Shown piece after piece: positions 39,507 through 53,138 of a stretch of 64,000 bases of DNA. A model generated the notes under the pieces. The model was not told the DNA's origin. It searched no databases and saw only the letters and a program-made list of their open reading frames with translations. Numbering within the stretch: position 1 is the stretch's first letter; every line of letters starts with the position of its first letter. Made by a program: the position numbers and the translations under genes. Origin of the DNA: a phage; the sequence record PX068456.1; one strand, written 5' to 3'.

Positions 39507-39695
39507 ATGACATTTATTGAAGAACTAACGAGAATTGCAAACGCACCTAACAGTAGCGAAGATCCTTACTTTATGGTAGATGATTACACTGGTGGTAATA
39601 TTGATGATGCCTATGAACTAGGCAGACTACACGGTGAAATTGAAATGGCTAAATGGGTTCTTTCGCAACTGGAGGTTAAAGATGAAACAAACTAA
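39507..39695 (+). CDS. hypothetical protein
   Basis: Start re-chosen at ATG (MTFIEEL...). Confidence 0.4.
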   Translation: MTFIEELTRIANAPNSSEDPYFMVDDYTGGNIDDAYELGRLHGEIEMAKWVLSQLEVKDETN

Positions 39696-40797
39696 TCCTA
39701 CACTATATGGTAAAACTTCTACAGGTAAAATTAAACAGTGGTCAGTCTATACCGAAGGTAGTGTTGTAACTGTTGCTCATGGTCAATTAGGTGGAAAGAT
39801 TACTAGCAAATCTTATACAGCAGAACCTAAAAATATTGGTCGCTCAAATGAAACAACAGCAGAAGAACAAGCTGAAATCGAAGCTCTTGCCAAATGGACA
39901 AAGCAACTTAAGAATGGGTATTATAAAACAAAAGAGGAAGCTGAAAACCATGTTCCTTCCACACCCATGAAATGTCAGGATTATAAAGATTATGCTGATC
40001 GTGTTTTGTTCCCAGGTTATGCACAGTATAAATTGAATGGTCTACGTTCAATGATTAACATGCAAGGTGAATGCTTATCTAAAGCTGGGGAAGTATATAA
40101 ACTTCCACCTCACTGGAAAGAAATTCCAACCTTCATTAAAGAAGTAGTTGGTCATCCTCTTGACGGTGAAGTTTTTGCTGGTTTGGGTGTCCTTAGCCTT
40201 CAACAAATTAATAGTGCGTGGAAAAAGCATAATACTAACACTCCGCTTCTTAAATACTATGTATATGATGTTCCTGTGCCATCTGTACCATTTGAGAAGA
40301 GGGTTGAAGTTTTGGCTGCTCTAAAAGAAGTTGTTGAAGATAAAGGTTTAGATGAACTTATTTGTGTAGTACATACAGAGTACATTGAAAACCAAGAGCA
40401 GTTTGATGCGTTCTATGCAAAAGCTCTACGTGAGAAAGCTGAAGGTGTTGTGTATCGTAATGCACAAGGTGTTTACGAGTTTGATAAACGTTCTTATGAT
40501 GTTATTAAACGTAAACCACGTCAGACACTTGAAGTTAAGGTGGTAAGTGCAAAACGTGATAAAAATGGTGACGGGGTATTGACAGGCGAGATGGAAAATG
40601 GTAAAGTAGTCGAATTCCTGATGCGTAAGGATTCAGATGAAACCATTAACTATCGTAAAGAAGAAAATGCTTTGACACTTATTGGTCAATTTGTTGAAAT
40701 TGAGTACGAAGAATTTTCAGACGAAGGTATTCCTACCAAGCCTGTTGGGGTACGTGTACGTAAGATGATTCCAGGTACTTGGGAACCAGCAGAGTAA
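39682..40797 (+). CDS. ATP-dependent DNA ligase
   Basis: Motif I KLNGLRS (KxNG), about 370 aa; start re-chosen at MKQTNPTLYGK with GGAGG upstream. Confidence 0.65.
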   Translation: MKQTNPTLYGKTSTGKIKQWSVYTEGSVVTVAHGQLGGKITSKSYTAEPKNIGRSNETTAEEQAEIEALAKWTKQLKNGYYKTKEEAENHVPSTPMKCQDYKDYADRVLFPGYAQYKLNGLRSMINMQGECLSKAGEVYKLPPHWKEIPTFIKEVVGHPLDGEVFAGLGVLSLQQINSAWKKHNTNTPLLKYYVYDVPVPSVPFEKRVEVLAALKEVVEDKGLDELICVVHTEYIENQEQFDAFYAKALREKAEGVVYRNAQGVYEFDKRSYDVIKRKPRQTLEVKVVSAKRDKNGDGVLTGEMENGKVVEFLMRKDSDETINYRKEENALTLIGQFVEIEYEEFSDEGIPTKPVGVRVRKMIPGTWEPAE

Positions 40798-40995: not shown

Positions 40996-41718
40996 ATGAT
41001 CGAGAATTTTTTCAAACAAGTAAAAGTGGACAATAGCTTCTTTATCAAGGCTGCCGATCAAATTGTTGCTTGGAATGCTAAGGCACGTGGTGGCGTAACC
41101 CCAGAATTTACTCAAGAGATGTTTGAAGCTCAACTTTCTTTTGTACGAGAAGAACTAAAAGAGTTCCAAGCAGCAGCACAGGAAAATGATCACGTTGAAT
41201 TACTTGATGCAGCAGCAGATATTTTTGTGGTAGCATCCTATCTGGCGTTTATGTTTTTTGGTAAAGAAGGTGTTGATAAAGCTCTGGAAATGCCGACAGG
41301 AGATGTTCTGGCAGAAAACATCTACGATGTTATCATTGAATTTGATAAAATGGTAGAAAATGACTTGCAATTTGCCCTAATGTCTCTTACACTTACACGT
41401 ATGGCACGAGATACTTTGGTGCGTTCTGTTTATAACGAGAAGAAGGTTATGCGTGAAGTGTTGAATAGCAATGAGTCCAAGTATCCTACCAAGAAGCAAC
41501 TCCTGGCTATTTGGGAAACTAAGGATATTGTTGAAGCTCTTGAAAAAGAGTGTGATGCTATCGAGATGCGAAGCAAAGATCGTGCAGAAGGTTCTTATAC
41601 TGGAATACATGCTGTATATAACGAAGTTCAAAAGGTATACGTATTCTTTGATGACAAAGGTAAAATTATGAAGCCATCTACCTTTGTTAAACCTAATATC
41701 GCAGCAATCATTGCTTAA
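40996..41718 (+). CDS. MazG-like nucleotide pyrophosphohydrolase (candidate)
   Basis: Acidic helix pattern REELKEF ... DHVELLDAAADIFVV consistent with MazG-type metal-binding motif. Confidence 0.4.
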   Translation: MIENFFKQVKVDNSFFIKAADQIVAWNAKARGGVTPEFTQEMFEAQLSFVREELKEFQAAAQENDHVELLDAAADIFVVASYLAFMFFGKEGVDKALEMPTGDVLAENIYDVIIEFDKMVENDLQFALMSLTLTRMARDTLVRSVYNEKKVMREVLNSNESKYPTKKQLLAIWETKDIVEALEKECDAIEMRSKDRAEGSYTGIHAVYNEVQKVYVFFDDKGKIMKPSTFVKPNIAAIIA

Positions 41719-41754: not shown

Positions 41755-42033
41755 ATGTTAACAGCAGAAGATATCTTTAAACACGGTTTGCGTCAGGTAA
41801 TCAAATCCTTGAAGAATGCAGGTATTGAAGATATCACACAGGAAATTGTTGGTTTAGAAAAAGAAGGTAAGAGAACAGAATTTAAGTTTTACACAGAAGA
41901 ACAGTGGTTGAGTAATCCGCAAAACAAAGCTAATGAGGCTGTTAGTCTGTTTGGTAAATCTTATAAAGGATTTAAATATCCTGATCATATTGTCGAATAT
42001 GATGGTGTAAAATATTTTGTAGTTGTTATTTGA
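41755..42033 (+). CDS. hypothetical protein
   Basis: 92-aa ORF. Confidence 0.45.
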   Translation: MLTAEDIFKHGLRQVIKSLKNAGIEDITQEIVGLEKEGKRTEFKFYTEEQWLSNPQNKANEAVSLFGKSYKGFKYPDHIVEYDGVKYFVVVI

Positions 42034-42043
42034 GGAGAAAACT

Positions 42044-42928
42044 ATGTTTGCTAAAAATTTCAAATCTTGCGTAACCCTGATTTCTGGTGATGGTCTGTCT
42101 ATTTCAGCACTGAACACAGTAACAGACAAACCGCTTGATTTTGTTGTGGCACAGGGGCAACAAGCACATACCATTGGTCTTGTTCGTTTTGAAGATGATG
42201 GTTCCTATGTAAAAGTGTTCTCTGGTTTAGAGGTTATTAAAGTAGGGCAATCTGTTAAGAAAGTTAACAAGAAGAAAGTTAAACGCATTCTTAATGAAAA
42301 ACTCCAGGAGATGGAACAAGAGTTTATTGCTGCAAATCCTACTAAAGAGTTCTTCTTGGACAAAGAAAGCAAAAAAGCAATTGAGGCTGATATTGTGTTT
42401 TCTTTGCTCCCAGAAACAGAGGCAGATGATTTCTATAACTATGTTGTTGTAGACACTGAAAACAGTATTACCTATGTTCTTAATGGTACTAAGAAAATTA
42501 GTGAAGATATTGCTGTATTTCTTCGTGAGGTGTTGGGTACTTTCCCAGTTCTGCCGTTTAGTGTACACGAAGAAGCCATTATTAAAGGTTTTGATACCAT
42601 CTTAGAAGAACATGAAGCTGAACGACTGACCCTGGGTAATTATATTAAACTTGAAGATTCGGAAGGTGTGGTTGTATGGAGTAAAGAGTCCCTTTATGAA
42701 TCTCGTGCAGTAGAACTTATGGAAGATGGTAAGCACGTTGTTGCCATTGGCCTGGAATATGACGGCTTCGTTAACTTTATTGTTGATAAAGAATTTAAGT
42801 TGAGTGGTATTAAATTCCCTAAATACTTTAATGATGAAGAAGGATCTTTTGAAGCATCTGTCCTTCTGTGCTTTAACGAAATCCGTGGTATTATGCAAGA
42901 CCTTATCAAGTCAACTATTCAAAAATAA
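42044..42928 (+). CDS. rdgC: RdgC-like recombination-associated protein
   Basis: Segment IVFSLLPE...VVVDTENSITYVLNG...LREVLGTFPVLPFS parallels E. coli RdgC VLHSLLPR...WIDTVNGLIMV...LRKSLGSLPVVPLS (from memory). Confidence 0.5.
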   Translation: MFAKNFKSCVTLISGDGLSISALNTVTDKPLDFVVAQGQQAHTIGLVRFEDDGSYVKVFSGLEVIKVGQSVKKVNKKKVKRILNEKLQEMEQEFIAANPTKEFFLDKESKKAIEADIVFSLLPETEADDFYNYVVVDTENSITYVLNGTKKISEDIAVFLREVLGTFPVLPFSVHEEAIIKGFDTILEEHEAERLTLGNYIKLEDSEGVVVWSKESLYESRAVELMEDGKHVVAIGLEYDGFVNFIVDKEFKLSGIKFPKYFNDEEGSFEASVLLCFNEIRGIMQDLIKSTIQK

Positions 42929-43223: not shown

Positions 43224-44342
43224 ATTAGCGGTTACATTTTAATCCAACCGGAAGACCTGCACAAATATGTTGACGAGAATACAATTCTTGCAATAGACTA
43301 CGATCAAGTGGCGTTCCAAGCGTCTTCAGCTTTAGAACAAAGAAAAATCCACGCTGTACACAAGTCTTCCGGTAATGTAAAAGAGTTTGAAACAAGAACA
43401 GATTTTTGGGGTAAATCTTCAAAAAATATTGGAGGATGGTTAGGAGCACTTAACGCGCAACGCGAAGCTGCTGGTAAGAAGTTGTTCTCTAGAGAAGATT
43501 TTGAAATAAAAGACGTTCAAATAGTCCCAGATAATATTTCTTTTACGTTTCAAGCTGCAAAGACAAAAATAACCCAGATGATGGATCACCTAAAACTTCA
43601 AAAGTATTGCGGTGTCATCGGGGTAGGAAAAACCTTCCGGCATTCTTTCAAAATGCCAAAAGAATATAAATCAGAACGATCAGATTTAAGACCAATCCAT
43701 TTATCAGATACTAAAGATTATCTAGTTGAAAAACATAACGGTGACGTTGTTACTGGTATTGAGGCAGATGATGCTTTAGAAATCTATGGATATGCAGGGT
43801 ATAAAGCCTACAAGGAAACTGGTAAGTTTTCTCATATTGTAGCATCTATCGACAAAGATAGCTTGCACACACCAAGTTTACTCTTTAACTTTTATAAAGA
43901 GGATGGTGTTTATAAAAATCCTTGTATTATTCTGATTGATGAATCTATTGGTGATATCTGGATCGTAGAAAAAGGTAAGAAAAAAGAAATTAAGGGTTGG
44001 GGTAGTTACTGGTTAGCTTATCAAATGCTAATGGGTGATAAGACAGATAGTATTCGACCTTACCAAGATTTCGATGTTAAGTTTGGAGATATTACTTGCT
44101 TTAATCTTATTTCCAAATGTAAAACACAGGCTGAACTTTTTCAGACAGTTAAAGATCAGTATTATGAATGGTTCCCAGATGGCGTTAAATTTACTTCTTG
44201 GGATGGTGAAGAAGTAGAGATGACAACTGACGAATGGATAGAGACAATTTTTCAGTTGGTATATATGAAACGTTGGGCGAATGATGAAACAACTTTTGAA
44301 AGTATGCTACAAGCATATATTTCAGAGCAGGAGGAACATTGA
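43224..44342 (+). CDS. 5'-3' exonuclease / flap endonuclease (T4 RNase H-like); start codon uncertain
   Basis: Motifs GIEADDALE, SIDKDS, LMGDKTDSI; N-terminal ILAIDYDQVAF lies upstream of first canonical start (GTG 43308). Confidence 0.6.
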   Translation: MSGYILIQPEDLHKYVDENTILAIDYDQVAFQASSALEQRKIHAVHKSSGNVKEFETRTDFWGKSSKNIGGWLGALNAQREAAGKKLFSREDFEIKDVQIVPDNISFTFQAAKTKITQMMDHLKLQKYCGVIGVGKTFRHSFKMPKEYKSERSDLRPIHLSDTKDYLVEKHNGDVVTGIEADDALEIYGYAGYKAYKETGKFSHIVASIDKDSLHTPSLLFNFYKEDGVYKNPCIILIDESIGDIWIVEKGKKKEIKGWGSYWLAYQMLMGDKTDSIRPYQDFDVKFGDITCFNLISKCKTQAELFQTVKDQYYEWFPDGVKFTSWDGEEVEMTTDEWIETIFQLVYMKRWANDETTFESMLQAYISEQEEH

Positions 44343-45301
44343 GTAAATTAACAGACGAACAGAAAGCCTTGATTGTATCTATGAAAGCACAAGGTTATTC
44401 TTCGCGTAAGATTGCACAAGAGGTGTTGGGAAGTTCTACTAAGAAGAGCACAGTAAATGATTACTTAGCTCGTGTAAATTCACCACATCGCGGTGCTCCG
44501 CAAGATAAAGGTGGGCCAGTAATTAAAATTATTGACGTAGAGACAGCACCGGAGATTGTGTATAGCTTCTCACGTTTCAAAGCCTTTATTGCACCTGAAC
44601 AAGTTATTCGTCGAGGTTACTTGCTTTCCTATTCATCTGCTGATTTAGAAACAGGAGAAGTAGAAGGTAAGAACCTTAGCAATTACCCTCTGTTTGACAT
44701 AGATCATACAGATGATTGGGAATTATGTCAAGATCTGTGGCACTTGCTTGACGATGCAGATATTGTGATCGCGCACAACGGTATTAAGTTTGATAAGGCT
44801 TATATTAACCAACGTTTTGCTTTTCACGGTATGGAGCCACCATCACACTATGTTGTAATTGATACACTCAAGGCAGCTAAGAAGCAGTTTGCACTACCTT
44901 CTAATGCGCTTAAAGAAATGTGTTTGTATTTTGATACAGAAAACTTTAAACTTGATAATGAAGGTTTTCCTTTGTGGAAAGCATGTTGTGAAGGAGACAG
45001 ACACGCCTTCTTCCGTATGCAAACATACAACGATGGTGATGTTGTTTCTCTTAGAGATCTTTACATCAAACTTCGTGCGTGGATTCCACAACATCCTAAC
45101 GTATCTGCATTCTATGACGATGAAAAACTTCGTTGTCCTCGTTGCGGTAAAGAGCACCTTGAAGTTGTTCCTGGTAAGGTTTACACAACAGCGGTTAGTA
45201 CATTCCAAGTGCTAAGATGCACATCATGTAATAGCCTGTCTCGTGGACGTGTTAATTTGCGTAGCAAAGAGAAGCGTGTAAACACTGTTATTGGAATTTA
45301 A
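44339..45301 (+). CDS. DnaQ-like 3'-5' exonuclease with N-terminal HTH and C-terminal zinc ribbon
   Basis: Exo motifs IIDVETA, HNGIKFD, YNDGDV; HTH-like QGYSSRKIAQEV; CPRCG...CTSCN. Confidence 0.55.
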   Translation: MSKLTDEQKALIVSMKAQGYSSRKIAQEVLGSSTKKSTVNDYLARVNSPHRGAPQDKGGPVIKIIDVETAPEIVYSFSRFKAFIAPEQVIRRGYLLSYSSADLETGEVEGKNLSNYPLFDIDHTDDWELCQDLWHLLDDADIVIAHNGIKFDKAYINQRFAFHGMEPPSHYVVIDTLKAAKKQFALPSNALKEMCLYFDTENFKLDNEGFPLWKACCEGDRHAFFRMQTYNDGDVVSLRDLYIKLRAWIPQHPNVSAFYDDEKLRCPRCGKEHLEVVPGKVYTTAVSTFQVLRCTSCNSLSRGRVNLRSKEKRVNTVIGI

Positions 45302-45304
45302 TAA

Positions 45305-45330
45305 AAAGGGGCGAAAGCCCCTTTATTTTT
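45305..45330 (+). terminator. intrinsic terminator
   Basis: AAAGGGGC-GAAA-GCCCCTTT hairpin followed by ATTTTT. Confidence 0.55.
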
Positions 45331-45339
45331 GGAGGATTT

Positions 45340-45741
45340 ATGACTACAGCACTGGATATTCAAATTGATGGTGATCACTACAAACGTATGCGTATGCAAC
45401 CTTTGGAACTTGCATATCTAATTGGTGCAACTCCTTGTTTCACTAAGTTAGCTAAGTATGCTTGTCGAAACAAAGGTGATCGTGTGATCAACCTAAACAA
45501 AGCGATTCACGTTATTCATATTGAAAAAGAATTGAGTGATAAATATTACAATATGTTGTATGAAGCCTACCCTAACTTAAAAAATCCTGTAAAAATTGAG
45601 TTAGCTAATCAGCTAATTGATTTATACACAGACGATGATCTTGTTCGTAAGGCTTTAAAAGCAATGTATAAAGGTAAGTATATTGAAGCAGCAGATGCTA
45701 TTGAACAATTGAAGGAGAGTGTGGATGGCTTCTCACGGTAA
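45340..45741 (+). CDS. hypothetical protein
   Basis: 133-aa ORF with AGGA upstream. Confidence 0.45.
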   Translation: MTTALDIQIDGDHYKRMRMQPLELAYLIGATPCFTKLAKYACRNKGDRVINLNKAIHVIHIEKELSDKYYNMLYEAYPNLKNPVKIELANQLIDLYTDDDLVRKALKAMYKGKYIEAADAIEQLKESVDGFSR

Positions 45742-45919
45742 ACAATACGGAGAGGGTGAAGTATATAAAATATACAATAAACGTGGAGATAAACTCCTAT
45801 ATACAATCACAATCCCAGAAAACATGTGTAAGGCGGGTTTAGACCGTATGCTTTTCTTTAAATATAACATTCCACCTGGAGATTATGTAGCTAAAAAGGT
45901 GAGCACTATTGGAAAATAA
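45725..45919 (+). CDS. hypothetical protein
   Basis: Start re-chosen at ATG (MASHGKQ) with GAAGGAG upstream. Confidence 0.4.
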   Translation: MASHGKQYGEGEVYKIYNKRGDKLLYTITIPENMCKAGLDRMLFFKYNIPPGDYVAKKVSTIGK

Positions 45920-46484
45920 AGAACCTAAAGTTATTTGGGGAGATGGAACACCTTGGAAAACTCAAGCAGCCTTTTATACATATTTAAGGGGTTGCTTAAG
46001 GAAAGCATGGGTGAGACACCCGAATAAGATAAAAAAGATCCAATCTGTACGATTTAAAGCCGATAGGTTGGATAAAGATGGCAATGTAGTTTTAGATAAG
46101 AAAACAGGCAAACCGAAACAGGTTTGGAATTGTCAATGTGAATTGTGTGGACATACAGGAGGTATGAAAGACTTTCAAGTAGACCATATTAATGCAGCAG
46201 GTACATTAACCTGTTATGAAGATATCCCAAGTTTTGTTTTACGCCTATTGTATGTAACAGAAGACGACCTGCGTGTAGTTTGTAAGCAGTGTAACGCTAT
46301 CCTAGCTTATGCTGACAAGCACGATATGACATTCAGGGAAGCAAAAGCGGAGAAGGAAGCGATAGCTTTATGCCAGTCTAAAAAGGATAAAAATTGGCTA
46401 ACGAAGCGCGGAATTTCACCAGAAAGTACAGTAAGTAAGCGAAGAAAACAAATAGTAAAAATTCTTCTTGACGAAGAGAAATAA
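45909..46484 (+). CDS. HNH endonuclease family protein
   Basis: CQCELCGHTG...QVDHI...CKQCN arrangement typical of HNH/zinc-finger nucleases. Confidence 0.5.
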   Translation: MENKEPKVIWGDGTPWKTQAAFYTYLRGCLRKAWVRHPNKIKKIQSVRFKADRLDKDGNVVLDKKTGKPKQVWNCQCELCGHTGGMKDFQVDHINAAGTLTCYEDIPSFVLRLLYVTEDDLRVVCKQCNAILAYADKHDMTFREAKAEKEAIALCQSKKDKNWLTKRGISPESTVSKRRKQIVKILLDEEK

Positions 46485-46529: not shown

Positions 46530-47093
46530 ATGGCTAAACTTTATTTCCGATATAGTCCGATGAACAGTGGTAAAAGCACACATCTTCTACAAACAGCTTG
46601 GAACTATAAAGAAAGAAATATGAAAGTTCTTCTTTTAACTTCAGCTTTAGATACCAGATCTGGTGGTGCTATTGCTTCTAGGATAGGTATTAAAGAGGAA
46701 GCAAAACCAGTTAAAACAAAAGAAGATATGCTGGAAATTTATACACAACTTAAAGAGAATCCAGTAGATGCAGTATTTGTGGACGAATCACAATTCCTAA
46801 CTAAAGATATGGTTGACATTCTTGGAGATGTGGTAGATAATTACGATATTCCTGTATTCTGTTATGGACTTAAAACAGATTTTGCTACAGAATTGTTTGA
46901 AGGTTCTGAACGGTTATTAGCCATAGCAGATTCCATTACAGAATTGAAAAGCATTTGTAAATGTGGAAGAAAAGCTATTTTCAATGCTAGACTTATCGAC
47001 TCTAAAGAACAGATTGTTATTGGAGGAGAAGACATTTACGAAACAATGTGTAGAAAATGTTATAACAGGAGAAATAATGCGTCTAGTATGTGA
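46530..47093 (+). CDS. tdk: thymidine kinase
   Basis: P-loop SPMNSGKST, C-terminal zinc-binding cysteines (CKCG...CRKC), 187 aa. Confidence 0.8.
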   Translation: MAKLYFRYSPMNSGKSTHLLQTAWNYKERNMKVLLLTSALDTRSGGAIASRIGIKEEAKPVKTKEDMLEIYTQLKENPVDAVFVDESQFLTKDMVDILGDVVDNYDIPVFCYGLKTDFATELFEGSERLLAIADSITELKSICKCGRKAIFNARLIDSKEQIVIGGEDIYETMCRKCYNRRNNASSM

Positions 47094-47667
47094 TTGGGAT
47101 TTAGTAATAGCTCCAGCGGATATAGAATGGTTAAATTGGTTAAATGCGGTAAGTAGATCTAATATCAAATTTGATAAGACACATAAAACTGTGCACTATG
47201 ATATTACGAAATATTTCCCTGATTTTAAAAAGCAATTTGGTGTAGATCCTTACTCTTTTTGGGATAACCAACATCTATATGATACTATGGGAGTAGTACC
47301 TAATAGTACAGATGTTGTTCATCGTATAATTGCAAATGGAGCTAATATATCTATAGCGAGCCACACTAAGGGTGGACACCTTAGTTCTAAATATAGACAC
47401 GTAACACGATCTTTAGATAAAGTGGATTTTAGTAGAACATCTGGTAATGGCTTTTTCGCAACAAAAGAAAAATACTTATTACCTTGCGATGTAACTATTG
47501 ACGATAGGGCTGAAAATCTTGTCCTGTTTCCAGATGAAACGTTGAAAATATATTTCAACACTATTTACGAAGATCCATATTTGGAAGAGTTAAAGAAACT
47601 TCCTAATGTAATTATCACTGGTTTAGATAATCAGTGGGAAGAAATTGAAAGTATTTTACTACCTTAA
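47077..47667 (+). CDS. HAD-family 5'(3')-deoxyribonucleotidase (candidate)
   Basis: HAD motif I CDWDLV near N-terminus; start re-chosen at ATG with AGGAG upstream (overlaps tdk end by 17 nt). Confidence 0.5.
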   Translation: MRLVCDWDLVIAPADIEWLNWLNAVSRSNIKFDKTHKTVHYDITKYFPDFKKQFGVDPYSFWDNQHLYDTMGVVPNSTDVVHRIIANGANISIASHTKGGHLSSKYRHVTRSLDKVDFSRTSGNGFFATKEKYLLPCDVTIDDRAENLVLFPDETLKIYFNTIYEDPYLEELKKLPNVIITGLDNQWEEIESILLP

Positions 47668-49428: not shown

Positions 49429-51690
49429 GTGACTCAGTATCTAAGCAAATCTATCCGTTATGTAACAAAAACAAACGGCAAGAAAGAAGAATTTAATCCA
49501 GAAAAACTTCGTAAATGGTCAGAGTTTGCTGCTGGTAAATTAAATTGGTCTGAAATTGAACTTGAAGCTGTTAAACGTTGTTACGACGGTGTGCCTACTC
49601 GTGATTTACATAAAGCTATGATAGCAGCATGTATTGATAAGAAAGATCAGGCATATAGTGATATGGCAGGTCGGTTACTTCTTGGTATGATTTATAAACA
49701 GGCTCATGGGGGATATCACAATATCCCCTCCCTCCTGGATTTCTACAATATGTCTGTAAGTAAAGGCTATTGGGGAAAAATGGATTATACAGAAGAAGAA
49801 ATTATTGAGATTGGTAAAATTGTCAATCACGATAAAAACCTAACTTATGGTTATTCCGTACTGCGCCAGATGGTTGATAAGTATCTTGTGAAAGATGCGA
49901 TCAATGATGTTGTTTTTGAATCACCACAGTTTTTATTCATTGGTGTAGCAATGAAGGTAATGGAAATCCAACCAAAAGATCGCAGAGTAGAAGACATTAA
50001 ACGTCTATATACCTACGTAAGTGATCTTAAGATTAATTTACCATCGCCTTATTTAACAACTTTGCGTACTAAGATTAAAGGTAGTGCTTCTTGTTGTCTG
50101 TTTAGAGCAGATGATACAGCAGAATCTTTAGCAATTGCTAACTATCTTGCGCATGAATATACATTGAATAATGCAGGTATTGGTGTTAACCTCCAAACCC
50201 GTGCTACAGGACAAGGTGTTAAGAACAACCGTATCGTTCACGGTGGTCTTTTACCATATCTGAAATGGATGGAAACAAGTGTTGGAGCATCAAAACAAGC
50301 AAGTCGTGGTGGAAGTGCAACAGTAACGTTCACAATATTAGAACCTGATTTTGAAGATCTGGTACGTTTGAAAAACCCAACTACTGTTAGTGAAAAACGA
50401 GTAGATAAACTTGATTACTCTATCGTAGTAAACAATGCTTTCCTGCGCCGTGCAGCAAAAGGTAAAGATTGGATGCTAGTTAGTTATGACGAAGCACCAG
50501 AACTCTATGAGGCGCTTTATAAAAGCGAGGAAGAGTTTGAAGAAGTATATGAAAAAGTTAGTCGCAAACGAATTAAGAAAAAGTTTGTAAAAGCACGAGA
50601 TCTTCTGGCAGAAATTATTACACAAAGAGCAGAGACAGGACGTATTTATATGTTCTTTGCGGATAATGCTAATAAGCATACTCCGTTTAAGGATGTTATT
50701 TATCAGTCAAACTTGTGCCAAGAAATTTTCTTACCTACGAAAGCATTTCACAATATGACTGATCTTTTCACAGGTGAGAATACAGAAGATCAAGAATTGG
50801 CATTATGCTTCCTGTCTTCTATTGTAGCTGGTCGTGTTACACCAGAAGAATATGAAGATGTTGCATATTATACAGTTCTAACTATTGATAATGTTATTGA
50901 AACAATGCAGTATCCGTTTAAACATAACGAAATAACTGCTAAAGCACGTAGGTCTATCGGTGTAGGTATTACAAACCTTGCACATTATCTGGCAAGTAAT
51001 TTTGTTACTTATTCAGATCCTTACGGCAAAAAACTAATTCACGAATTAGCAGAAAGGCATTATTACTGGTTAGCAAGAGCTTCTCTTCGTTTGGCAAAAG
51101 AGAAGGGTAATGCAGAATGGATGCATAAAACCAAATGGCCTGAAGGATGGTTGCCTATTGACACCTACGCTAAAGCTGTAGACGATATTGGCAATTTTAA
51201 ACTTAAAATGGATTGGGAAGGTTTACGACAAGATATCATTGCACAAGGCGGTATCCGAAATAGTGTATTAGCAGCTATTGCTCCGAATGAGTCCAGTAGT
51301 CTTGTAAGTAATACGACTAACTCTGTGTATCCTGTACGTGATACTATAGTTTATAAACAAAGCCAAAAAGGTAATGTCCTGTTTATTGTGCCAGACTATG
51401 ATAAACTAAAAGATATTTACCAATCGGCTTGGGATACGCCAGATAAAGATATGGCTGAAGCATATGGATTATTGACTAAATTCTTAGATCAAGGTGCATC
51501 ATGTGATAAGTGGATTGACTATTCTAAGATGGAAGGTGGTCGTTTATCCATTAAATCAGAAATGCAATATATCCTTCAGTTTGCAAAACTTGGTGGTAAA
51601 TCTTTGTACTATCTAAATAGTAGAACAAAATCGGCAACCTCACTCGCTCAAGAAGATGAAGAATCTGGTTGTGAGGCTTGTAAGATGTAA
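49429..51690 (+). CDS. nrdA: ribonucleoside-diphosphate reductase alpha subunit (class I)
   Basis: N-terminal ATP-cone-like segment, 753 aa, C-terminal Cys pair CEAC; GTG start after TAGGAGAGG. Confidence 0.8.
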   Translation: MTQYLSKSIRYVTKTNGKKEEFNPEKLRKWSEFAAGKLNWSEIELEAVKRCYDGVPTRDLHKAMIAACIDKKDQAYSDMAGRLLLGMIYKQAHGGYHNIPSLLDFYNMSVSKGYWGKMDYTEEEIIEIGKIVNHDKNLTYGYSVLRQMVDKYLVKDAINDVVFESPQFLFIGVAMKVMEIQPKDRRVEDIKRLYTYVSDLKINLPSPYLTTLRTKIKGSASCCLFRADDTAESLAIANYLAHEYTLNNAGIGVNLQTRATGQGVKNNRIVHGGLLPYLKWMETSVGASKQASRGGSATVTFTILEPDFEDLVRLKNPTTVSEKRVDKLDYSIVVNNAFLRRAAKGKDWMLVSYDEAPELYEALYKSEEEFEEVYEKVSRKRIKKKFVKARDLLAEIITQRAETGRIYMFFADNANKHTPFKDVIYQSNLCQEIFLPTKAFHNMTDLFTGENTEDQELALCFLSSIVAGRVTPEEYEDVAYYTVLTIDNVIETMQYPFKHNEITAKARRSIGVGITNLAHYLASNFVTYSDPYGKKLIHELAERHYYWLARASLRLAKEKGNAEWMHKTKWPEGWLPIDTYAKAVDDIGNFKLKMDWEGLRQDIIAQGGIRNSVLAAIAPNESSSLVSNTTNSVYPVRDTIVYKQSQKGNVLFIVPDYDKLKDIYQSAWDTPDKDMAEAYGLLTKFLDQGASCDKWIDYSKMEGGRLSIKSEMQYILQFAKLGGKSLYYLNSRTKSATSLAQEDEESGCEACKM

Positions 51691-51698
51691 TGAAACTA

Positions 51699-51720
51699 GG
51701 GGGCTTTGTCCCCCTTTCTT
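51699..51720 (+). terminator. stem-loop/terminator between nrdA and downstream genes
   Basis: GGGGGC-TTTG-TCCCCC followed by TTTCTT. Confidence 0.45.
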
Positions 51721-51730
51721 AAGGAGGAAT

Positions 51731-52066
51731 ATGCCTACATTAGTTGTATTACCTGGGGCAACACCACAAAGACGTTGGGGAAATTATACACTGGTAGATA
51801 GTAAAGATTTTACATTCGATTGGTGTTGCCATTATATTGCAGGTTTTCAATTTTCCAGTGTTGAAATATGGGCTTCCAATGATCCAGAAGCTACCTGGTA
51901 TGCTTTAACCAGGGCAAGATATGATGGAGAGGTTACTGTACTACTCACAAAGAGTGTATGGAACGCATTAGAGAAGGCTTACATAGAGAATGGTATGGAG
52001 AGAAAACACATTGATACAATAAAAGCAATGTGTGATATTGTGGAGGATTTAAATGGCAGCAATTAA
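51731..52066 (+). CDS. hypothetical protein between nrdA and nrdB
   Basis: Start re-chosen at ATG with AAGGAGG upstream (MPTLVVLPG...). Confidence 0.45.
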   Translation: MPTLVVLPGATPQRRWGNYTLVDSKDFTFDWCCHYIAGFQFSSVEIWASNDPEATWYALTRARYDGEVTVLLTKSVWNALEKAYIENGMERKHIDTIKAMCDIVEDLNGSN

Positions 52067-53138
52067 TTTATACAACGACACTTACAAAGAAGGTTTCTAT
52101 CCTGTATTTTTGGGAGAACAGTTAGGTATTTTTGATTCTATTAATGTAACATACCCAGAAATGCATCGTCTGTATAAACTACAAAAACAGCAAGATTGGG
52201 ATGAAAACGAAGTAGACTTAGATCAGACACGAAAAGATTTCGTAGCTTGTTCTAAAAGCAACTACGATGTTATGATCAAAAACCTATCTTTCCAATGGGA
52301 AAATGATTCACTTGCTAAATCAATTATCACTTTGTTTGCACCATTTTTAAGCAACAACGAAGCATGTGCAATGATGATGAAGCAATCAGAAATGGAAGTT
52401 TTACACGCTTTGACATATTCTGAAATTATTCGTCAGTGTATCCCTAATCCAAATGAAGTTATCGATCAGATTATGGAGAACGAAAGAATCTTCCAGAGGA
52501 TGGGTATAGTTGAAGAGGTAATGAGTGATCTGGCAGAGGCAGGACATAAATATGCTCTAGGTCTGATCGAGAAGGATGATAACCTTCGTCTACTGATCCT
52601 GAAAGGAATGATTGCACTTATCGGTCTGGAAGGCATTCAATTCATATCCTCTTTTGCTGCAACATTTGCCTTAGCAGAGCAGCAACTGTTTGTAGGTGCA
52701 GCTAAACTCATTCAAAAAATTATGTTGGATGAACTATTGCACGTTAAAATGGATTATGCTATTATTGATGCACTGCTGAAAGATCCTGTTTGGAGAAAAG
52801 TATACGAAGATAATATCGACGTTCTGACAGAAATTCTTGACACGGTAGTTGGACAAGAGGAAGATTGGTGTGACTATCTGTTTAGTGAAGGAAGGGTTAT
52901 CGTTGGTGGTAACGCAGAGTTGTTCAAACTTTGGGTTTACTTTAATGCTGCACCTATCTATCGCAGACTGAAAATGAAACACAAATTCCGTGCACCGAAG
53001 AAAAGTCCACTGCCTTGGATGGATGTTTGGTTAAATCCAGATCAAATTCAAGCAGCAGCACAGGAGATCCAAATTACAGCTTACAAACTGAATTCAGCAA
53101 ATAAAGATGTAAGTGATGACGAGGAGTTAGACTTTTAA
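52053..53138 (+). CDS. nrdB: ribonucleoside-diphosphate reductase beta subunit
   Basis: 361 aa directly downstream of nrdA; acidic C-terminal tail typical of R2. Confidence 0.7.
   Translation: MAAINLYNDTYKEGFYPVFLGEQLGIFDSINVTYPEMHRLYKLQKQQDWDENEVDLDQTRKDFVACSKSNYDVMIKNLSFQWENDSLAKSIITLFAPFLSNNEACAMMMKQSEMEVLHALTYSEIIRQCIPNPNEVIDQIMENERIFQRMGIVEEVMSDLAEAGHKYALGLIEKDDNLRLLILKGMIALIGLEGIQFISSFAATFALAEQQLFVGAAKLIQKIMLDELLHVKMDYAIIDALLKDPVWRKVYEDNIDVLTEILDTVVGQEEDWCDYLFSEGRVIVGGNAELFKLWVYFNAAPIYRRLKMKHKFRAPKKSPLPWMDVWLNPDQIQAAAQEIQITAYKLNSANKDVSDDEELDF

Follow-up and report, generated by a model that had tools for sequence, protein, structure and literature searches.

A predicted DEDDy 3′-5′ exonuclease with a conserved zinc ribbon and an optional helix-turn-helix in a Justusliebigvirus genome, a member of a large phage family

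In the 64,000-nucleotide stretch of phage DNA analysed here (sequence record PX068456.1, referred to below as the window), a gene at positions 44339..45301 raises the question of whether its 320-amino-acid product is a DnaQ-like proofreading enzyme or a free-standing nuclease serving some other part of phage DNA metabolism. The original prediction, made from the sequence alone, had described a DnaQ-like exonuclease carrying an N-terminal helix-turn-helix (HTH) and a C-terminal zinc ribbon, and had proposed a role in replication or recombination or in the degradation of host or competing DNA. This overall interpretation is supported, with the three domains upheld by a homolog alignment, by profile searches and by an AlphaFold2 model. 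The active site is of the DEDDy type, as in the editing domains of family-A and family-B polymerases, and not of the DEDDh type of true DnaQ, and on the strength of its sequence the protein very probably has metal-dependent 3′→5′ exonuclease activity. The gene and the parts of its product are as follows.

44339..45301, plus strand: complete coding sequence of the HTH / DEDDy exonuclease / zinc-ribbon protein (320 amino acids and stop codon), from reading of the open reading frame
44351..44476, plus strand: three-helix HTH domain, residues 5-46 (helices 6-17, 22-30 and 33-46), from the AlphaFold2 model and homolog profile matches
44477..44518, plus strand: flexible linker, residues 47-60, of low model confidence and varying in length and sequence among homologs
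44519..45112, plus strand: predicted DEDDy 3′-5′ exonuclease domain, residues 61-258, with an RNase H-like fold (Pfam PF13482)
44534..44542, plus strand: ExoI motif D66-V-E68, invariant in 43/43 sequences
44777..44794, plus strand: ExoII motif N147-G-I-K-F-D152, with D152 invariant and N147 and F151 at least 90% conserved
45026..45040, plus strand: ExoIII motif Y230-N-D-G-D234, with Y230 and D234 invariant, defining the DEDDy subtype
45128..45256, plus strand: predicted C4 zinc ribbon of three beta strands, residues 264-306, its two CxxC pairs at 266-269 and 294-297

The alignment comprises 43 homologs, which extend down to 29% identity with a mean column identity of 35%. Only 12 of its columns are invariant, and these include D66, E68, D152, Y230 and D234 of the exonuclease domain together with C266, C269, C294 and C297 of the ribbon. 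Conservation of the DEDD residues had been named beforehand as the point on which the exonuclease claim would turn, and the five catalytic residues are invariant in every one of the 43 sequences. All of the motifs quoted in the original prediction were located in the protein (QGYSSRKIAQEV at residues 18-29, IIDVETA at 64-70, HNGIKFD at 146-152, YNDGDV at 230-235, CPRC at 266-269 and CTSC at 294-297), and the combined motif and family match goes far beyond chance. The possibility that the protein has lost catalysis and serves in DNA binding or regulation while retaining an exonuclease-like fold, which would suit an HTH and a zinc ribbon that are both modules of the DNA-binding type, retains next to no probability in view of this invariance across 43 divergent homologs, and the HTH is missing in most of the diverse members while the exonuclease domain never is. 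The pseudo-enzyme or regulator idea was thus rejected because the catalytic residues do not vary.

Profile searches agree with the alignment. The protein matches PF13482 (RNase_H_2) with 27.9 bits against a gathering threshold of 22, as do 41 of the 43 homologs, and it matches PHROG 403 nearly end to end (E value 5.8e-108, with residues 5-319 aligned to positions 3-319 of the 321-position profile); 67 database homologs were found, with E values down to 4.5e-217. The description as DnaQ-like holds at the level of the superfamily, and fails for DnaQ proper: the ExoIII motif reads Y-x3-D (Y230 to D234), which assigns the enzyme to the DEDDy type, and scores against the dnaQ equivalog models reach only about one-tenth of their cut-offs (28.1 bits versus 196 for NF004316, and 20.6 versus 222.7 for TIGR01406). 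The family-B polymerase exonuclease profile PF03104 is matched at 16.3 bits against a cut-off of 23, and 16 of the 43 homologs match each of PF03104 and PF10108; no polymerase domain is present. The DEDDy, PolB-exonuclease-like assignment agrees with the clustering of Majorek et al. 2014 (PMC3985635), in which PF13482 comprises predicted 3′-5′ exonucleases and the phage-only PF13482 cluster F.23 is strongly connected to PolB-exonuclease clusters.

The AlphaFold2 model, built on the 43-homolog alignment, has a mean predicted local distance difference test (pLDDT) score of 93 and a predicted template modelling score of 0.79. Its N-terminal domain has three helices (6-46) and is followed by a linker of low confidence (47-60); the exonuclease domain, of the alpha/beta type, covers residues 61-258, and the C-terminal ribbon has three strands (274-306). 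The modelled exonuclease domain has an RNase H-like alpha/beta fold that can be superposed on known DEDD exonucleases, and its best structural matches are the exonuclease domains of family-B polymerases, T7 polymerase and ExoI. In BFVD the best structural match is the LKA1 'YprB ribonuclease H-like domain-containing protein' (E value 1e-31, template modelling score 0.76). In sequence-profile comparisons with the PDB, the best matches are to the PolC exonuclease (1.4e-5) and epsilon (1.3e-4), chiefly over the ExoII motif, which aligns to ExoII of both proteins; a PDB search with the single sequence gave only marginal epsilon matches (E value 0.45), and no solved structure of any family member was found in the PDB. 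DEDD nucleases act by two-metal-ion hydrolysis. Residues D66, E68, D152, Y230 and D234 would form the active site of such a metal-dependent exonuclease, and Y230 would orient the attacking water.

The ExoII motif is also the site of an insertion in four longer homologs of about 570-590 amino acids (P0117, P0149, P0197 and P0213), in which some 260 residues are placed exactly within the motif (corresponding to phage residues ~146-152, nucleotides 44774-44794). In P0117 the sequence runs ...VLVGHN|CVHKD...GWLSGFFEGEGS...AMHN|CNNFD, and shows a LAGLIDADG-like block as well as junctions of intein type (C1, HN at the end, Cys at +1); Pfam gave no Hint domain at an E value of 1e-3 or below. An intein-like insertion at a catalytic motif suggests strong selection on the site.

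The ribbon claim was likewise upheld. The four cysteines are invariant in the 43-sequence alignment, and the model places three strands at residues 274-283, 288-294 and 300-306. Weak matches were obtained to the zinc ribbons of Lar, PaaD, TFIIS/Rpb9-type proteins and Rpp21, and with a profile of its own the ribbon was detected in all 67 database homologs and, among 80 diverse IMG/VR loci, in 79. Judged from these sequences, exonuclease domain and ribbon make up the conserved core of the family, the exonuclease domain being constantly accompanied by the ribbon and not by the HTH; the C4 ribbon would bind zinc and would be an obligatory part of the enzyme core.

For the N-terminal domain, block-mean pLDDT values lie between 85 and 97 over residues 1-40. 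The phage protein alone matches HTH_38 below threshold (14.3 bits versus 27, E value 0.036), and among the 43 homologs HTH_38 is matched in 11 (best E value 4e-6), HTH_23 in six and GerE/LuxR in six, with the resolvase HTH_7 and NUMOD1 each matched by a single homolog; the family profile weakly matches the HTH domains of NarL, Sleeping Beauty and resolvase. The helices of the model and the homolog matches thus argue for a genuine small HTH of the HTH_38/HTH_23/GerE-LuxR type, a clan to which sigma-70 region 4 also belongs, and not for a specific relationship to sigma region 4. Domain-profile searches found the HTH in 18 of the 80 IMG/VR loci and in 55 of the 67 database homologs, and it is a lineage-specific accessory module present in a subset of members. 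Members of the phiKMV type, such as PT2 gp24, have an unrelated extension of about 90 amino acids in its place or lack the HTH. In the distant homologs P0063 and P0067, the N-terminal HTH is replaced by a CPRCGS-containing segment, a possible second zinc element, which suggests that the N-terminal nucleic-acid-binding module is exchangeable. Ribbon and HTH are both predicted nucleic-acid-binding modules, and in the HTH-bearing lineage the HTH, joined through its flexible linker, probably holds the enzyme to duplex DNA.

The signals at the start of the gene are these.

44330..44342, plus strand: ribosome-binding site GGAGGA at 44330-44335, TTG start codon at 44339-44341 and TTGA overlap at 44339-44342, from reading of the sequence

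The TTG start is credible because homologs of 67-80% identity share the start residue with the 320-amino-acid protein, because residues 2-14 are conserved, and because the first predicted helix (6-17) needs them. At TTGA (44339-44342), the start of the exonuclease gene overlaps the stop of the upstream gene by four nucleotides, an arrangement that suggests translational coupling of the two genes. The same gene boundaries appear in the annotation of phage PD06 (RefSeq NC_052653), which is 99.7% identical to the stretch from PX068456.1. The latter is the genome of a Justusliebigvirus, a phi92-like myophage of E. coli, and a 2.5-kb stretch around the gene shows 99.2-99.8% identity to the top-listed of 57 Justusliebigvirus genomes, a genus that includes ECGD1, PD06 and PHB05. 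Database cluster P0001 matches the protein at 100% identity, and its ortholog in PD06 is JR318_gp160, named 'DNA polymerase exonuclease subunit' in RefSeq; in other records this gene appears as 'putative DNA polymerase', 'exonuclease' or 'hypothetical protein'. The gene is therefore one that has already been sequenced and annotated in known phage genomes.

Beyond this genus the family is large. Among 1.84 billion cluster representatives, a profile search returned 3,051 clusters at an E value of 1e-30 or below and 4,952 at 1e-10 or below, the family size of about 3,000 referring to clusters at 50% identity. A tblastn search located the family in 1,587 phage records, with Mycobacterium, Escherichia, Pseudomonas, Vibrio and others as hosts, and PT2 gp24 and ICP1 gp189 match PHROG 403 as well. 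The mycobacteriophage Hammy gp58 'DnaQ', a toxic protein of 185 amino acids, was considered; its membership in the family was not established and it was not used.

Under the name given in RefSeq, the protein would be a proofreading subunit that acts in trans for the phage family-A polymerase (Pol A), docking to it and correcting mismatched primer ends, the part that epsilon plays for Pol III alpha. This label is carried by both RefSeq and PHROG 403, the ExoII region resembles that of epsilon and the PolC exonuclease domains in sequence, and Pol A precedes the gene by a few kb in phiKMV-like phages. The label is, however, homology-derived, and no experiment behind the name was found in the literature; the dnaQ equivalog models score far under their cut-offs. 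The Pol A of PD06, a family-A polymerase of 1,104 amino acids (record positions 49491..52805), lies about 60 kb from the exonuclease gene, which is adjoined by nucleases instead. The polymerase keeps all DEDDy residues in an N-terminal domain aligned to the T7 gp5 exonuclease: its N-terminus contains FDIES, HNIINFD and YCIYD, of which the second and third align by BLASTP with HNGHKYD and YNVQD of the T7 gp5 exonuclease domain (E value 6e-7), and the first aligns by MAFFT with the T7 N-terminal DIEA. In the same MAFFT alignment, the 13 full-length co-resident Pol A genes of the IMG/VR loci and that of PT2 all keep the ExoI DxE, and the ExoII FD/YD is kept in the co-resident genes of the IMG/VR loci, with PT2 as the exception in having FE. 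Polymerases that coexist with the exonuclease gene therefore appear, from their motifs, to have their own editing domains, and as their exonuclease motifs are kept there is no missing activity for the exonuclease to supply. A proofreading subunit is accordingly decidedly unlikely, and the 'polymerase subunit' label of the databases is unsupported. The PD06 Pol A (L004:2492-5806) also carries, as read by eye, an apparent intein-like insertion at about residues 580-840 with a LAGLIDADG-like 'LEGFLIADGY', after which the polymerase motifs resume at about residue 860.

The following features surround the exonuclease gene in the window.

39634-40797: ATP-dependent ligase
40996-41718, plus strand: MazG/PRA-PH-like nucleotide pyrophosphohydrolase
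42023-42928, plus strand: RdgC-like recombination-associated protein (Pfam RdgC, E value 2.5e-19)
43308..44342, plus strand: upstream T7 gene 6-like 5′-3′ exonuclease of the FEN superfamily (PHROG 107, E value 2.5e-54)
45305..45334, plus strand: intrinsic-terminator-like hairpin AAAGGGGC-GAAA-GCCCCTTT (hairpin 45305-45324, 8-bp stem), starting 4 nucleotides after the stop codon and followed by a T-run
45340-45741, plus strand: 133-amino-acid protein of PHROG 10946 (E value 5e-67), with no Pfam match
45909..46484, plus strand: HNH / endonuclease VII-like nuclease gene (PHROG 1985), filling the endonuclease VII/HNH slot of the conserved module
46963-47667, plus strand: NT5C-like open reading frame, 'hypothetical' in PD06, with a near-threshold match to NT5C deoxyribonucleotide 5′-nucleotidase (E value 8.7e-5, 22.9 bits versus 24.8)

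The location directly after a FEN gene, as originally described, is correct in substance, the upstream gene being a member of the T7 gp6 family whose stop overlaps the start by four nucleotides. A direct BLASTP comparison of the upstream gene with T7 gp6 was not significant (E value 0.31), and the likeness is drawn because both match PHROG 107, the T7 gene 6 exonuclease at an E value of 5e-79; PT2 gp22 and the Nankokuvirus 'exonuclease' match likewise, and the equivalent JG068 gp21 has been assigned by HHpred to the T5 5′-nuclease. In PD06 the 'exonuclease' gp159 lies upstream, and two hypothetical genes, an HNH endonuclease, thymidine kinase, ThyX and ribonucleotide reductase follow downstream. 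The order gp6-like gene, endonuclease VII/HNH gene and exonuclease family gene is found in PT2/phiKMV (gp22-gp23-gp24), JG068 (gp21-22-24) and Nankokuvirus, and PX068456.1 has the same three gene types in another order, with the HNH/endonuclease VII-like gene downstream of the exonuclease gene. Of the IMG/VR loci, 56 extend at least 3 kb upstream; in 20 of these a gp6-like gene lies within 5 kb upstream and in 21 an endonuclease VII/HNH gene lies within 4 kb, most of these loci belonging to phiKMV-like podophages with an RNA polymerase gene downstream. These counts come from iterated profiles, as single-seed phmmer undercounted; the iterated Pol A profile also matched every target open reading frame via its exonuclease domain, so that Pol A labels on target frames were disregarded and the number of loci with a Pol A was left out of the evidence.

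Several further observations concern the neighbouring genes themselves. The ligase, MazG-like and RdgC-like genes form a contiguous DNA-metabolism block upstream. The terminator-like hairpin precedes the ATG of the next gene at 45340, and from its sequence it would imply a transcript boundary or attenuation point inside an early or middle gene block. A homolog of the 133-amino-acid protein is also located downstream of the exonuclease gene in the IMG/VR loci L009 and L070. The NT5C-like frame lies between the genes for thymidine kinase and ThyX; in its long reading, from a GTG start, it overlaps the end of the thymidine kinase gene, the start annotated in PD06 giving a shorter frame.

The reading preferred here, and held tentatively, is that of an accessory free-standing 3′→5′ DNA exonuclease, the 3′-end-trimming member of a phage nuclease, recombination and replication module. 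The gene would form the final cistron of an expression unit with the T7 gp6-like 5′→3′ exonuclease, and its product would work jointly with this enzyme and with the endonuclease VII/HNH-type nuclease to remove 3′ tails and flaps and to degrade the single strands that 5′→3′ resection leaves behind. The setting may be recombination-dependent replication and repair, the breakdown of host DNA for nucleotide recycling, or both. According to the T7 record, gp6 is needed for recombination and for degradation of the host chromosome, and by analogy a similar duality is plausible here; the upstream ligase, RdgC-like and MazG-like genes and the downstream nucleotide-metabolism genes fit either role. It is rather unlikely that the enzyme serves chiefly to degrade host or competitor DNA for nucleotide salvage, with the endonuclease cutting, the gp6-like enzyme resecting 5′→3′ and the exonuclease yielding deoxynucleoside monophosphates for the adjacent nucleotide-metabolism genes. 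The requirement of T7 gp6 for host chromosome degradation and the clustering of the nuclease trio are in keeping with such a role, as are the genes for thymidine kinase, the NT5C-like protein, ThyX and ribonucleotide reductase immediately downstream in PX068456.1 and, in Nankokuvirus and ICP1, the downstream genes for thymidylate synthase and ribonucleotide reductase. Such a set of genes would nevertheless be just as much expected for recombination-dependent replication, and the two proposals overlap mechanistically, the main substrate being the sole difference.

The gene context of DNA replication and nucleases also bears on the substrate. An RNA or small-nucleotide substrate, whether for primer or transcript turnover or for the counter-defence destruction of nucleotide signals or defence nucleic acids, is very improbable in this context, given also that the best structural and family matches are to DNA-polymerase exonuclease domains. 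A defence-related match, to PADLOC PDC-S48, is weak and partial, spanning only about 74 residues of a generic motif, and was rejected as a generic ExoII-motif match.

A number of points weigh against the proposed 3′-end-trimming role in a nuclease module. Recombination and host-DNA degradation are indistinguishable by sequence, and the literature on the family yielded annotation-level mentions only, with no biochemical or genetic data found on any member. The gp6-like synteny is absent in about two-thirds of the diverse loci, and ICP1 gp189 is not next to a gp6-like gene; as read from representative sequences alone, the neighbours in the remaining loci include a large terminase-like open reading frame that carries an intein-like insertion, a possible portal protein, a small conserved protein and ribonucleotide reductase. 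The association with gp6-like genes thus recurs across unrelated phage groups and is not universal, and the partnership is not obligatory. Finally, the evidence from the polymerase is drawn from the near-identical PD06, the polymerase gene lying outside the window.

A more ambitious proposal takes the HTH-bearing subfamily to be a site- or structure-targeted exonuclease with a role beyond that of a polymerase proofreader, directed to specific phage DNA ends or replication-initiation intermediates, or used in offense or counter-defence against host, prophage or competitor DNA, with the near-invariant ribbon as a substrate clamp, a kind that has yet to be described among DEDD nucleases. This proposal is improbable as a whole.

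Taken together, the finding is accurate but ordinary, in that the protein is a member of a large and already catalogued phage family in a known genome and holds no surprise for a specialist. Its main value is better annotation, as 'DNA polymerase exonuclease subunit' and 'DnaQ-like' are the routine labels of a family that is in fact DEDDy and PolB-exonuclease-like. Characterizing one member would give a function to thousands of phage genes, including those of therapeutic Pseudomonas and E. coli phages and of the Vibrio phage ICP1, and would account as well for the pairing, in many phages, of a second 3′-5′ exonuclease with a T7 gp6-like 5′-3′ exonuclease.

Among known systems, the closest are the PHROG 403 and phage PF13482 relatives (PD06 gp160, phiKMV/PT2 gp24, JG068 gp24, the LKA1 YprB-like protein and ICP1 gp189), which have the same core and of which the phage protein is a member, differing in nothing essential and having in addition the optional N-terminal HTH. 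The exonuclease domains of family-B polymerases (archaeal PolB, Pol epsilon and E. coli Pol II; PF03104, PF10108) are without the zinc ribbon and HTH of the phage protein, which in turn has no polymerase domain. DnaQ/Pol III epsilon and the PolC exonuclease, which are DEDDh enzymes, belong to the same DEDD superfamily, but the ExoIII motif of DnaQ/epsilon is H-x4-D whereas that of the phage protein is Y-x3-D, and the C-terminal polymerase-binding tail of the epsilon type is absent, with the zinc ribbon in that place. In T7 gene 5 the exonuclease domain is fused to the polymerase, whereas the phage protein is free-standing and the phage polymerase has its own copy.

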